Source: Escherichia coli
GTDB lineage: Bacteria > Pseudomonadota > Gammaproteobacteria > Enterobacterales > Enterobacteriaceae
NCBI RefSeq assembly: GCF_002854065.1
Contig: NZ_CP024150.1
Reading direction: 5' to 3' (one strand)
DNA length: 64,000 bases
This document shows, piece by piece, positions 25,601 through 42,763 of this stretch (its first letter is position 1; every line of letters begins with the position of its first letter). Position numbers: made by a program.

Positions 25601-28600
25601 TTCAGGGCTTCACTGCGAAATTCAGGCGAATGCTGTTTACGGGGTTTTTTACTGGTTGATACTGTTTTTGTCATGTGAGTCACCTCTGACTGAGAGTTTA
25701 CTCACTTAGCCGCGTGTCCACTATTGCTGGGTAAGATCAGTAACTATGATTATATAGATCGTTTAGCTCATTATTTAGGACGCCCCGTTACCGAATCAGA
25801 TATTGGTCCATCAAGAAATGATATTGAAGGGGTTCGTGTAATGAGAAGAGGAGGAAGTTGGAGTTCCTTAACCAATAGATTTTTCTGCCTTGGTTTAGGA
25901 TTGGCATTATCACGATCAGGAGGAGACCTGTAATTAACTACACACATAACCTTTAATACTTTTAATATCTTTAATAACATAACTCAGGAAAAATATGAAA
26001 AGTAAAACTTATAGAATGATAGTCTGCAGTTTCTTAATTTTACCGTTGTATTCTAAAGCAACACCTCAAAATATTGATGAACTATGTAAAGAGTATTATA
26101 ACACTAAAATTTATCCAGAAAACAAAGAAATCAAGACATATATGGAGTCTTTGGCTGGGTATAGAGAGTTTGTGGTTATTTCATTTAGCAACGGTCATAT
26201 ATTCTAGGTCGAGGTCCCTGGCAAACAGCATTTGGAATCACAAAAAAGACCATTAGAGAGAATGAAGGATACGTTAATAGCTGCCTATTTCACAGGAATG
26301 AAAATTAATAAAATATGCGCATGGACTAATAAAACGCCAAATTCTATTGTTGCTATTGAATTGAGTAATTAAATATAATTGAATGCGAAGTATAATGATC
26401 TGCACTTCGCATTCAATTAAATGTAATATGCCGAATTATGCTATATGTTTCTCCTTCCTCCTTTGAAGTTACGTCAATTCATTCATTCTAATTTTTTGGA
26501 AACATCAGTAATATGATATGCTCAACATATCTGAGTATTTTGGTCCTAAAAAGAGAATTGAAAGCATCTCGTCAAGATGCCGAATAGACTGTCTGTACTG
26601 TACATTTATAGAACATTACAGCATAAGAAAAATGCACCTTACTCAGTTCAAATTTAACTTTTGAGGTGCAAGATTAAAGGTTTTGGTTTACAGTGCATTT
26701 AGATAAATGAATTTTATTGATTTAAACTGCATAACCGAAGTGGAATTTTCTCTAAATTCAGATATTAAAATATTATTTCTTTTGTTAACGAATATATAAT
26801 GTAATGCCTGAGGCATTATTACAAATAGTACTGATTCTTTGTATATCAGTGTTACTGCCAGGTACGCTTGCCCCTCTCCCATTTGCTTGTTTGGCTAGAA
26901 TGGAATCACCAAAATTTTTTGAAATGACGGCGACGCACTGATTGTAAGCATCGTTTTCGCTGTAAGATTTTGGGATCCAATACTGCACAGCTACACAAGT
27001 ACTGTTTCCACTAATGGTGTCTGAACAAGATGTGCCATAAAGAGAAAAAACGCCGGGGATGCCATTTAATGTAACACCTGTCGATGTAGAGCCTATTCGA
27101 TTTGTTATAGATTTGACTTGTCCACTTGGAAAAAATTTTTTTAGAATCTGATAACCGGAGTCTTTCTTTAGCTCAGAGTAAGCGGATTTAGGTTGGTTGC
27201 TATAAAGTGCATTAATATGTTGGGTGATGGAGATAAACATTTCTGTTACTCTTCTGTTCTGTAAATTTTCATTAGCTGTTGACATGTAATACATGACACC
27301 AGAAACGACTACTGCAGAAAGAGCAAGCACCATTGCAGCCTCAATTAAGCTAAGACCGCGTTGTTTTGTTTTTTGGGGACTGTTCATTTTTGATCACAAA
27401 GAGATTTATCGATACAGAGTGAGAATTTTCTTTAAATAAAACATACCGCGCGTAAAAATAAAATAAGATAATACCTATTTTCATTTTCAAAAAAAGGATT
27501 ATCACCCAACAATAAATAATAGTTTGTAAAAAAAAGTAAATTAAAGATTATGAAGATATAATAAACTAATAGTCTGTGTTTTTATCGGTAGCAGTCTTTT
27601 TGTATGGGGAATTTCCTTTTATATTTCAATACATAAGGGAGCACGACTCTATGAACAATAATATCAATTCCGCTAAAGTTTTTGATTGTATAAATACAGT
27701 TCAATATCAAATAGTTCTTTAGTGGACTAAATACTTGTTACAAAAAGTGTTTTTATATTATTAGTATCAATAATATATTTTAATAAACAAGTTTGACAGC
27801 AGGAAAAATATATGAATGAAAAAATAACAAATGCAGGTTTTGTAATGAGCGAAAGCTTTATTAAGGAAAGTATTTCAAATATAATTGAACAAACTGGGTG
27901 TGTTAATGTAGTATGGAATGCTATGCGATCAAATAAAATAAAGGATTATTATCTCACCACTCCAGTGGATCTTCTTATAGCTGAATACAAAAAAGGTGGT
28001 TATGATGAAAGTTTATCAATTATCAGAAGGGCAAGAGATCTTTCATCAAAAGTAAAAATAATTTTTTTTACTGACTTAAATGATTATGACATAATAAATA
28101 CACTACTGAATAAAGGTGCAAATGCTTTTATATCCTATACTAATAGCAGAGTAAATATAATTAATGCAATAAATAAAATCCTACTTTTCGGTAAAGAATA
28201 TATATGTTCTGAACTTAGCCACGAGATTATGAAAATTAGATTTAATAATGAGTTTAACAAAACACACAAGCTAACGCATTCCGAACTTAAAGTAGTTGAT
28301 TATCTTTGCCTTGGCCTTAAAATAGAGGAAATATCACAATTATTACATAAAAGCCACAAAACCATAAGTAATCAGAAATTATCAGCTATGCAAAAACTAG
28401 GTGTTAAAACCGACATAGCATTATATAAAAAATTTAATCGTATAGATTAGCTGAATAAAATTAGCGATACCTTTTTATTTTTTCATATTCTTTTTTAACT
28501 TTTTCTATATACTTATACTTATAGGTAGGGGTTTTGGAATGATATTTACCAACCCCCTCCCATACATCTCCATTTTCCTCTGAGATCGCTTTTGAAAGTA

Positions 28601-40600: not shown

Positions 40601-42763
40601 GATTTTTCTCTCATAAAAAATTATTGTATTAAGCAAAGTGAATCGATGTCTCCAGGTAATACTTCCGTAATAAAATATAAAAGTGAAGACATTTACTTAC
40701 CTCATGGTTACTTGATATTTATGCAAAAAAGGAATGATAATTCATATATGTGTTTATCTTTGCTTGAAAATAACAAAAAATCGTTCAATCTTGATCAGTT
40801 ATATATCATTTCTTTTTTAACAGGTGTTGAGGGAGCATATTATGAAAAAGGTGAAATAAAAAAGCCATCAATTTTATTTAGTCCTGTGAATGTCAGCTCA
40901 TTAAATATTCCAGAAAATCAGTTCTCATCATCAAGAATGCCAGCGCTTTATTTTATAGGTGACGAGCGCTCCTGACTAATATATCACGGAGTGATTCTTT
41001 AGAATTCTGAAGAGCTAGTATGTAGAAGTACTGTTTATTATATCCTTAACGATATTACCCATGCAATAAGAGACTTTATCATTAGATGTTATAGTGTACT
41101 CAGGATTCATTAATATAACTATGGATTATACTACCGAATGAATCGAAAAGATTTATACTGTAAACACGCTAAAGTCATGGCCAGTTTTGTTAACCATTAC
41201 AGTGCTGATCTTGCCCCACCATTTTTGCCATGCGGTTAAGTAAGAAAACTCTTAGTCCGAGGAGACTCACATGACAAAACAGTATTACTTAGCAAAAAAT
41301 CGTAAACAACATTCACCTGAATTTTACAGTGAAGATCTGATGCTTGCGGAACACATCAGTGTTGCTGCCTCGGCCCGTGAATTCAGTATGTATGAGTTGA
41401 ACTTAAACCCCCTCGCGATGTGAAAGGTACCTTTGAGCTGCGGTTTATTCGCAAAAATCATACGCGCATTACGCACATGGATCGGCAAATCCTTTCCTTT
41501 TACGCAAAAGGCATGACACGCGTCAAATCGTCTCCATTTTCAAAGAGATGTACGATGCGGATGTGTCGCCACGCTGATATCGAAAGTCACGGATGCCGTT
41601 TAGGAGAATGTCACTGAGTGGCAAAATCGCCCGCTTGATACACTGTATCCCATTGTTTATCTTGACTGTATTGTTGTGAAAGTCCGTCAGGATGGTAGCG
41701 TAATTAGCAAGCCCGTATGCTTAATGCTCGTAATCAATACCGAAGGCCACAAGGTGTTGCTGGTAATGCGGATAGAGGAGAACGAAAAGGCGAGATTCTG
41801 GCTGAGCGTGCTGACAGAACTGAGAAATTAGGGGCTGGAAGACATTCTCATCTCCTGTTTTGATAGTCTGAGAGCTTCCCGGACTCAATAAATAGCGTAT
41901 GTCCACAGACGCGTGTATCGTTATGCATATGATCCACAACAGCCTGTAATATGTTACTTGGAAAGACTCAAAGCTGTGATGCGTGATCTGAAGGCGATTA
42001 ATTGGGGACCGACGGACGAATCAGTACGCAAAGTGATCTGGCATACAACTGAGGCGGCGGCGACAAAATGGACAATGTCGTTCATCAACTGTCGGTTGGC
42101 TATGAGTCGATTTATTATCGAATACGGTTGTCGCCTGAGCGGCCACCTTTAATCGTGGCAAAGAATGTTAAAAAATTCTCACCATTCCCAAGAACACCTG
42201 TCTACCATGTCTCCGGCTCGTACAATTCATGCCGGGGACCATCACTGCGACAGCAGGACGGCTGACGTTCTTGTTTTCCTCTTGTTTATTTTCTTCGTCC
42301 AACGCGCCTGCTTCACTGATACTAGTACCGTGCAGATGTTGGCTCTGTCAGATAAATTGGAGTAGTAATACATTGATTTTTCATTAAAATAACTATGTGA
42401 TTACATCATAAATTCGAGGGCCAACCTCGACAGGCTTATTAACACGTCAGCTCAGAAAAACTGTGTATACACTTAATGATTTTGTTATGGATTTACTGAT
42501 GAAATACATTATTGTCGGAAGCATCTTCGGCATGGTTATGTTCAGCATCATAACCATCGTGTTGCCGCTCGTCATAACAGCACACAATAAAATCAGCAGA
42601 AACAATACCGAGTAACCGTTTTCTTATGCCGTTTGCAGAGCACCTTCCCCTCGAGTGGATACAGCACTGTCTGACGCTTTCTACGCCTGTGACCATTCGT
42701 TGTCAACGCCACGATTTTTAACCGTTATTTGCCATTTTCATGCCCGCTAAAATACTTTCGTTA

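Follow-up and report, generated by a model that had tools for sequence, protein, structure and literature searches.

The bundle-forming pilus (BFP) defines typical enteropathogenic Escherichia coli (EPEC) and the aggregate-forming pilus (AFP) a subset of enteroaggregative E. coli (EAEC), and pathotyping relies on the genes of both. Identity among bfp operons exceeds 98% (PMC6279748). AFP is encoded by 15 co-linear genes with afpA2 in last place, depends on the AraC-type regulator AfpR (Lang et al. 2018, PMC6279748), and has reported functions in autoaggregation, adherence, and cytotoxicity (PMC6279748). Here, we analyzed a stretch of 64,000 nucleotides from E. coli (contig NZ_CP024150.1 of assembly GCF_002854065.1; hereafter the window) in which a plasmid island of low GC content, with all 17 of its genes intact, spans positions 26785 to 40975. 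By sequence, these genes almost certainly constitute a type IVb pilus (T4bP) gene set of the BFP family that belongs to a distinct lineage, neither bfp nor afp, and we propose that the island probably encodes a complete, functional, and retractile pilus carried on IncF-type E. coli plasmids. BFP and AFP themselves are well described and the lineage reported here is apparently uncharacterized; in the open-access literature we found papers on BFP and AFP only, and no description of this lineage.

Evidence for a distinct BFP-family lineage

Ten minus-strand genes of the island were one-to-one homologues of bfpA-G-B-C-U-D-E-F-P-H, in the same order, when compared by BLASTP with the proteins of plasmid pMAR2 from EPEC E2348/69. 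Amino acid identity reached 62, 63, and 64% for the BfpD, BfpE, and BfpF homologues, followed by those of BfpH (57%), BfpA (52%), BfpP (51%), BfpB (48%), BfpG (42%), and both BfpC and BfpU (34%). The biogenesis set was therefore complete and in the order of a BFP-family system, and it was accompanied by three small minor pilins of the BfpI, BfpJ, and BfpK type. A preliminary description of this DNA, drawn up from the sequence without database searches, had recognized both the bfp gene order on the minus strand and the low-GC block, and our analysis bore out both: every open reading frame (ORF) was present where that description had placed it, and GC content was 0.30 to 0.39 across the block at ~26 to 41 kb versus 0.43 to 0.61 in the flanks. 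In an identical RefSeq record, each gene is annotated as intact, and the locus bears zero pseudogene flags.

The preliminary description would have been overturned by near-identity to an already characterized pilus cluster, but protein identities to BFP and AFP were only 34 to 64%, and we found no characterized cluster that matched the locus. Our AFP-like comparator was the locus on plasmid pJKHS016_1, whose proteins were 34 to 67% identical to those of the window and which lies about equally far from BFP and from the window locus. It is co-linear, has its second pilin gene last, and lies near the dispersin gene aap, a layout like that of AFP; it is called AFP here by organization and context only, as the AFP type strain 12-05829 was not compared in sequence. 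Given its similar distance to EPEC BFP and to the AFP-like locus, the window locus is best regarded as a separate lineage of the BFP family. EPEC bfp proper was rejected on these amino acid identities (34 to 64%), on the divergent minor pilins, and on the lack of an AraC-type activator in the window, and AFP proper on its different layout, the lack of an AfpR-like match in the window, and the 34 to 67% identity to the AFP-like locus. [quoted passage not shown]

The region recurs at 100% identity on p2017.06.05CC_1 (NZ_AP027791.1; human feces, Viet Nam) and two other plasmids, and at 95 to 99% identity on several further plasmids. Carriers made up 12 of 5,426 complete E. coli genomes, with human and pig hosts and a plasmid location in all, and the carrier plasmids were both mobilizable and non-mobilizable. 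Divergent variants taken from public assemblies (L011 to L016), in which the homologue of the 273-amino-acid (aa) protein discussed below is only ~66% identical, had an unchanged architecture that included the regulator and the orphan pilin. Across the window, L011, and L013, the ratio of nonsynonymous to synonymous substitution (dN/dS) was 0.04 to 0.33 at dS of 0.6 to 1.3 for all 15 genes of the two operons, which indicates that all of them are under purifying selection; together with the conserved architecture, these ratios argue that the genes are maintained and are not chance ORFs.

Several carriers have been described in other contexts. [quoted passage not shown] The pilus is unmentioned in both of these papers.

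Components of the pilus machinery

The major pilin (37345..37962, minus strand) is a bundlin-family protein of 205 aa that matches Pfam Bundlin (4.8e-21) and PilS (1.5e-12). Its likeliest start is at 37962, not 38049, and its leader, ending in KMEKG/LSLIE (the slash separates positions -1 and +1), is of the bundlin-type class III, with Gly at -1, a residue other than Phe at +1, and Glu at +5. Next on the same strand lies the gene for the BfpG/TcpQ-like secretin partner (36649..37296), whose similarity to BfpG extends over the C-terminal 81 aa and whose orthologues carry Pfam TcpQ. The preliminary description had called this protein a lipoprotein, a label left without support, since its sequence contains no lipobox. 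It is also longer than BfpG (215 versus 133 aa) through an extra N-terminal ~80 aa rich in Asn, Ser, and Lys, an extension kept in the diverged variants (216 to 223 aa) that may alter how secretin and partner interact. The interaction between BfpB and BfpG has reportedly been resolved recently. The BfpB-like secretin itself (34966..36636, minus strand) is the lipoprotein expected, with the lipobox VSSC at residues 12 to 15 and a match to TIGR02520 (E=2e-82); its top NCBIfam model is that of the PilN-family type IVB secretins, at 277 bits versus a cut-off of 288.

The remaining assembly proteins follow on the minus strand. The BfpC/PilO2-like bitopic assembly protein (33699..34964; E=8e-72 to BfpC) is named "type 4b pilus protein PilO2" in RefSeq, and one of its orthologues bears Pfam PAP_PilO. 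The BfpU-like periplasmic protein (33271..33702; E=1e-11 to BfpU) has a signal peptide, lacks a lipobox, and gave a weak pilP_fam match under the cut-off. Of the two ATPases, which had E values of 1e-33 to 3e-56 in matches to the GspE/PilB and PilT families, one is the BfpD-like extension ATPase (31637..33271; GspE E=3e-56, PilB E=2e-51) and the other the BfpF-like PilT-type retraction ATPase (29601..30593, with the start at 30566 in RefSeq; pilT_fam E=9e-38), which has the Walker A motif GATGSGKST. Between them lies the gene for the BfpE-like inner-membrane platform of the T2SSF family (30574..31644), with GspF and ComGB family matches. The BfpP-like A24 prepilin peptidase (28865..29596) has the Asp motifs GGDIAL and LIDIKEMWLP, and its orthologues bear Pfam A24_N_bact and Peptidase_A24; the BfpH-like lytic transglycosylase (28461..28877) matched NCBIfam TrbN and IagB, with Pfam SLT in its orthologues. 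Profile searches, proposed in the preliminary description as a check, thus identified the secretin, ATPases, platform, and transglycosylase, with the A24 and SLT domains recovered via orthologues. NCBIfam and PHROGs yielded zero matches for the pilins, the BfpC-like and BfpG-like proteins, and the 273-aa and 142-aa proteins.

The divergent operon and the orphan pilin

The plus-strand operon divergent from the machinery genes had been described as holding four genes. The operon is real and conserved in the diverged variants, but it comprises five genes, tightly packed or overlapping, as the ORF of 142 aa had been missed; their order is the 273-aa protein, the BfpI-like pilin, the 142-aa ORF, the BfpJ-like pilin, and the BfpK-like pilin. 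The BfpI-like minor pilin (38982..39512; 24% identical to BfpI, E=3e-6) has the leader G/FSLLE and a dN/dS of 0.22 to 0.33; the BfpJ-like one (39934..40455; 23% to BfpJ, E=2e-9) has the leader MKKERG/FSLVE and is named a prepilin-type N-terminal cleavage/methylation domain protein in RefSeq; and the BfpK-like one (40463..40975; 28% to BfpK, E=7e-4) has the leader MKRKNQHG/FSLIE and a dN/dS of 0.09 to 0.19. The largest minor pilin measures ~177 aa, and a large minor pilin of the CofB/TcpB type is absent from the locus. The ORF between the BfpI- and BfpJ-like genes (39512..39937, plus strand) encodes a membrane-anchored non-pilin of ~141 to 142 aa with four Cys, which is BfpL-like by features only, namely similar size, N-terminal anchor, and Cys spacing. 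It is intact in every variant, with all four Cys conserved and a dN/dS of 0.18 to 0.21, and is unannotated on p102651_74, the carrier plasmid of strain 102651.

A second bundlin-like pilin paralogue of 200 aa lies alone (26785..27387, minus strand), as had been noted previously; it is kept at the equivalent position in p102651_74 and in L015/L016. Its leader is MNSPQKTKQRG/LSLIE (N_methyl E=3.7e-4), and its identity is 32% with BfpA (E=7e-13) and 34% with the pilin that comes second in the AFP-like locus. The prepilin leaders, on which the preliminary description had also staked its reading, were of class III in all five pilin-like proteins, with a terminal Gly ahead of [LF]SL[ILV]E and Glu at +5, and the three minor pilins have Phe at +1 versus Leu in BfpI, BfpJ, and BfpK. 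Pfam N_methyl was matched at E<=0.1 by five of the six proteins scanned, these being all five pilin-like ones, and at E<=0.001 by one only, scores that are modest because the model spans only 27 positions.

A pilus-linked FKBP-fold protein

The first gene of the minor-pilin operon (38171..38992, plus strand) overlaps the BfpI-like gene and encodes the exported protein of 273 aa, for which the preliminary description had suggested a secreted factor in the manner of TcpF or CofJ. We found a different fold. A Pfam search of the protein alone gave zero matches, FKBP_N included, but C-terminal motifs were suggestive of FKBP, and the fold was tested on that account. An exhaustive profile search retrieved 43 relatives; among 38 aligned family members, FKBP_N was found in 15 and FKBP_C in 1, and against solved structures the family profile matched E. 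coli FkpA (E=1e-21) and Legionella Mip (E=1e-12), covering both domains of Mip. An AlphaFold2 model built with this deeper alignment, which replaced an unusable one from 11 sequences (predicted local distance difference test [pLDDT] of 52), reached a pLDDT of 90.8 over residues 102 to 273 and showed a 45-residue helix followed by an FKBP-type beta-sheet around a short helix. With its Sec signal peptide, long connecting helix, and C-terminal FKBP fold, the protein is a diverged member of the FkpA/Mip type. In place of the FKBP_N dimerization domain, residues ~25 to 100 form a Ser-rich region of ~75 aa that is predicted to be disordered and is the least conserved part of the protein.

The FKBP pocket appears remodeled. 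By an approximate comparison (an alignment of ~13% identity with FKBP12, Mip, and FkpA), FKBP12 residues Y26, F36, D37, W59, Y82, and F99 correspond to L194, I204, S205, I221, Y245, and Y263, so that only Y82 is kept, and the Leu, Ile, Ser, and Ile at the first four positions are family-wide. To judge from these residues, the protein is unlikely to act as a classical isomerase.

In five of six informative contexts, the FKBP-like family occurs inside T4bP loci: beside the major pilin gene on a plasmid of Salmonella Macclesfield and in L006 and L018/L019, after the ATPase and platform genes in L008, and inside the chromosomal T4bP locus L020, contigs L007 and L009 being too short to inform. The sixth context, a metagenome contig (L010, 9001-15187), carries a distant FKBP_N-containing member of 421 aa beside chaperone-usher fimbriae, with a YuaE-domain gene on one side and, on the other, a run of three small genes, Wzy_C (O-antigen-ligase-like) and DsbA-like genes, and a GerE regulator. 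One homologue search found homologues of the 273-aa protein only on six locus-carrying E. coli plasmids and the Salmonella Macclesfield plasmid, and none was found on the BFP and AFP-like plasmids.

An RcsB-like regulator and the divergent intergenic region

A regulator of the LuxR/FixJ type had been noted beside the machinery operon. It is real and conserved, but its nature as an RcsB-like pseudo-receiver had gone unseen. The gene (27812..28450, plus strand) is convergent with the 3' (H) end of the pilus operon and encodes a receiver and a GerE/LuxR helix-turn-helix (HTH) domain; NCBIfam matches to FimZ (4e-19), RcsB (8e-16), and also UvrY extend over ~190 aa and all fall far under the curated cut-offs, and the best solved relative is RcsB (E=5e-10, residues 21 to 207). 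The recognition-helix region is nearly the same as in RcsB (SHKTISNQKLSAMQKLGV in the regulator versus SIKTISSQKKSAMMKLGV in RcsB). In the receiver, however, other residues stand in for the phospho-acceptor Asp, for the acidic pair, and for the conserved Lys: RcsB D10, D11, D56, and K109 become M12, S13, E58, and Y109, and T87 is kept. The pattern is equal in all four variants except at the D11 equivalent, which is Ser or, in L015/L016, Arg. The annotation of the identical plasmid shows no sensor kinase over the part that matches window positions 1 to 50200. These substitutions and the lack of an annotated kinase point to an orphan pseudo-receiver regulator that presumably acts without phosphorylation.

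The preliminary description placed this regulator where an AraC-type activator would be expected, which is true only loosely. On pMAR2, an AraC-like match, which we take to be PerA, lies ~4 kb beyond bfpL, and some carriers have AraC-like and ANR genes farther upstream, but the 64-kb window has neither an AraC-like gene (tblastn with two AraC-type queries) nor an ANR gene. On p102651_74 (L004), two regulator genes lie upstream of ecxAB and the pilus genes, one for an AraC-family protein of 277 aa (6805-7638) with 34% identity to its AfpR-like counterpart on pJKHS016_1, the other for a negative regulator of the ANR family (9010-9210); the pair resembles the AggR/Aar-type regulatory pairs of EAEC and may control the island in strains that have it.

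The divergent intergenic region contains a perfect 12-bp palindrome, GGGAATATTCCC (38076..38087, no strand assigned), which occurs once in the 64 kb and whose half-sites are the most conserved blocks of the DNA between the pilin and FKBP-like genes. Extended by its flanks, the palindrome agrees with the RcsB box as published, TN(G/A)GAN4TC(T/C)NA (PMC7913699), at every specified position but the first T, and it can be put forward with low confidence as a candidate operator for the locus regulator or for host RcsB. The intergenic region between the orphan pilin and the regulator held no copies with up to two mismatches, and scans for promoters and terminators performed no better than on shuffled sequence.

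Linkage to the EcxAB toxin and plasmid remodeling

Directly left of the orphan pilin, the window carries a remnant of an EcxAB toxin (25706-26369, plus strand), a linkage that had escaped the preliminary description. Of ecxA only the final 75 codons are left (85% identical), and ecxB is a pseudogene (94% identical) in which RefSeq marks an internal stop; the remnant lies beside an IS3 copy at ~24510-25672; insertion sequence (IS) debris of IS256 and IS21 lies on the other flank of the island. At the same position, ecxAB is intact on p102651_74 (L004, 10557-11851) and in L015/L016, and the intact pair matched EcxA of PDB 4L63 (A subunit, E=6e-152) and CfxB and EcxB (B subunit, ~1e-50). Its presence in both p102651_74 and the diverged L015/L016 argues that the linkage of toxin and pilus is old and conserved, and the island probably also bore this EcxAB metalloprotease AB5 toxin ancestrally.

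A 500-aa hypothetical protein is encoded further left (22651-24153, minus strand), and its residues 1 to 231 match AetD (PDB 8ji2 and related structures) at E=3e-18. AetD is a haem-oxygenase-like diiron enzyme of aetokthonotoxin biosynthesis. In L015/L016, the gene comes immediately downstream of ecxA-ecxB and shares their strand, and from this position it may be part of the toxin operon. The DNA that separates the pilus island from the IncFII repA holds several IS21, IS3, and IS256 fragments and a colicin V remnant (~46690-47141; L001, 29190-29641) with a frameshifted cvaC and an intact cvi immunity gene, which together show heavy IS-mediated remodeling of the plasmid.

A proposed pilus and its alternatives

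We propose that the ten-gene operon would supply the major pilin, the secretin and its partner, the assembly proteins, both ATPases, the platform, the prepilin peptidase, and the transglycosylase, and that the divergent operon would add I/J/K-like minor pilins that prime assembly, as well as accessory proteins. The pilus would extend and retract and, by analogy with BFP and AFP, would bring about autoaggregation and adherence to the gut epithelium; a function of the locus as an adherence or aggregation pilus seems likely on this comparison. The FKBP-fold protein, without most of the isomerase pocket residues, would on the reading we favor serve in the periplasm as a dedicated chaperone or partner for pilins, for the minor-pilin complex, or for the secretin, a role as periplasmic chaperone to which we give even chances. 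The RcsB-like regulator would be locus-specific and phosphorylation-independent, controlling one or both promoters, possibly via the palindrome resembling an RcsB box.

Several observations weigh against this proposal in whole or in part. The RNA-seq supplements of Hazen 2017 (PMC5471185) contained no assignable signal for these genes. Comparison of the 142-aa protein with BfpL by BLASTP and hhalign, aided by a bridge sequence from Salmonella, did not demonstrate homology (hhalign probability of 18%). As for regulation, the contiguous palindrome is not kept in L011 and L013, the most diverged variants, near-matches to it showed no significant enrichment in the window, and a sigma-70 scan was uninformative in this AT-rich DNA (66 sites versus 69.5 expected). 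For the FKBP-like protein, the pocket comparison is approximate, and the one distant member beside chaperone-usher fimbriae lies outside any type IV pilus locus. Finally, with its toxin being degraded, the window plasmid may be decaying as a virulence element.

This last point leads to the explanation that the locus is a silent relic in the window plasmid, intact but no longer expressed or useful within an IS-eroded island. The truncated ecxA and the ecxB pseudogene beside IS3, the IS256 and IS21 debris on the other flank, and the absence from the window of the AraC-like and ANR genes of p102651_74 would all fit such a relic. Against it stand 17 of 17 genes intact, identical copies on at least three plasmids from humans and pigs, purifying selection across the variants, and retention of the locus-linked regulator, and we consider it improbable. 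More improbable still, and by some way, is a thin pilus like PilL-V of R64/IncI plasmids that stabilizes mating pairs in liquid and has no part in adherence. The plasmid location throughout E. coli, the PilO2 name of the BfpC-like protein in RefSeq, and the secretin's best NCBIfam model (at the 277 bits given above) point that way, but every component is closest to BFP or AFP in an identical gene order, a PilT-type retraction ATPase is present, and a large adhesin pilin of the PilV type is absent (no search was made for a shufflon). Moreover, the locus is linked to a toxin and not to transfer genes, its carriers are mobilizable and non-mobilizable alike, and the related L020 locus is chromosomal.

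The FkpA/Mip-like protein might instead be an extracellular or pilus-tip colonization factor, exported by the pilus machinery as TcpF and CofJ are or exposed at the surface as Mip is, with its Ser-rich disordered N terminus as a docking segment for the minor-pilin complex. In other pathogens, proteins of the Mip type are virulence factors exposed at the surface, and non-pilin proteins whose genes accompany those of minor pilins, such as PilY1 of type IVa pili, sit at the pilus tip; the gene here comes first in the minor-pilin operon and overlaps the BfpI-like gene, ~75 aa of disorder follow the signal peptide, and the isomerase pocket is unconserved even though the domain is under purifying selection. 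Yet the fold is that of FKBP and not of TcpF or CofJ, no minor pilin of the large CofB/TcpB type accompanies it, the disordered region that would dock is the least conserved part, and among solved structures it is FkpA, a chaperone of the periplasm, that comes closest over the full family profile. For these reasons, we regard an extracellular or tip factor as unlikely. Overall, the interpretation given in the preliminary description was partly supported: the pilus locus and its departures from the bfp layout stood, and the comparison of the 273-aa protein with TcpF and CofJ did not.

Implications for pathotyping and pilus biology

This third lineage of the family is too diverged to be detected by PCR for bfpA or afp. 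It occurs in childhood isolates of GEMS, in an LT+ EPEC/ETEC hybrid, and in pig isolates, and it travels with the EcxAB toxin; if functional, the pilus would be a candidate colonization factor of strains that are currently classed as commensal. To students of pili, the locus offers a minor-pilin (priming) module naturally split off the machinery operon, an FKBP-fold protein that is linked to a pilus and has a remodeled pocket, and a putatively phosphorylation-independent RcsB-like regulator. More tentatively, and with considerable doubt, we suggest that the FKBP-fold protein could be an unrecognized dedicated component of a T4bP clade comprising this locus, the Macclesfield-type loci, and L020-type chromosomal loci, acting in the folding and assembly of pilins and minor pilins or as a tip-associated or secreted protein, and that the island could mark an overlooked type of diarrheagenic E. 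coli that has been scored as virulence-negative. If so, the combination of a BFP-like pilus, the EcxAB toxin, and a pseudo-receiver regulator would characterize a type that is missed by PCR for elt, est, eae, bfpA, aatA, and aaiC.

Comparison with known systems

Compared with BFP of EPEC, encoded on pMAR2 (the EPEC adherence factor [EAF] plasmid), the window locus shares the A-G-B-C-U-D-E-F-P-H order, a bundlin pilin with Leu at +1, the plasmid location, a secretin that is a lipoprotein and has a TcpQ-like partner, two ATPases, and three small minor pilins. It differs in sequence, with identities of 34 to 64% for A to H and 23 to 28% for I, J, and K, and in layout, as BFP has its minor-pilin genes at the 3' end of the machinery operon and the window has them in a divergent one. 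The FKBP-fold gene, the orphan pilin, and the GerE pseudo-receiver regulator are present in the window only, which in turn lacks an AraC activator of the PerA type. AFP, known from EAEC and from hybrids of Shiga toxin-producing E. coli (STEC) and EAEC, is likewise a diverged relative of BFP with an extra major-pilin paralogue, afpA2; in the fetched region of pJKHS016_1, however, tblastn found neither an FKBP-like gene nor a GerE regulator.

TcpF of the Vibrio cholerae TCP and CofJ of ETEC CFA/III, colonization factors whose secretion depends on the pilus, are non-pilin exported proteins encoded in a T4bP locus and possessing a flexible N-terminal segment (PMC6048534, PMC9565799). The 273-aa protein has no sequence similarity to either, adopts an FKBP fold, and lacks a trimeric minor-pilin partner of the CofB/TcpB type. 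From E. coli FkpA and Legionella Mip, which are PPIase chaperones of the FKBP type in the periplasm or at the surface, it differs by low identity (8 to 17%) and by the position of its gene inside a pilus operon. The regulator, for its part, matches NarL-family regulators of the RcsB/FimZ type across both domains but has lost the acceptor Asp, the acidic pair, and the Lys, with no kinase nearby.

The Salmonella Macclesfield plasmid (NZ_CP022118) and its relatives (L006, L018/L019, and L020), none of which is characterized, share with the window a BFP-family T4bP locus that includes an FkpA-like gene. On the Macclesfield plasmid, identity to the window is 56% for the pilin, 61 to 64% for the D, E, and F proteins, and 53% for the secretin. 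Loci of this type differ in having P-H first, the FKBP gene co-directional and downstream of the pilin, and large minor pilins (~330 to 480 aa), and their FkpA-like protein is 25 to 30% identical to that of the window. The chromosomal locus L020 (CP109901.1, a 4.2-Mb chromosome; coordinates 1-19941), a T4bP locus of the same clade, encodes five bundlin-family paralogues, an FkpA-like protein, a GerE regulator, two large pilin-like proteins (545 and 495 aa), and, with 190 aa, an anchored C-x6-C protein; it is possible that L020 shows the ancestral organization of BFP-type pili. Given that the FKBP family occurs repeatedly in T4bP loci and is absent from BFP and AFP plasmids, the features of the window that look noncanonical beside bfp may be ancestral to a wider T4bP clade, of which BFP and AFP would be the reduced, characterized members.

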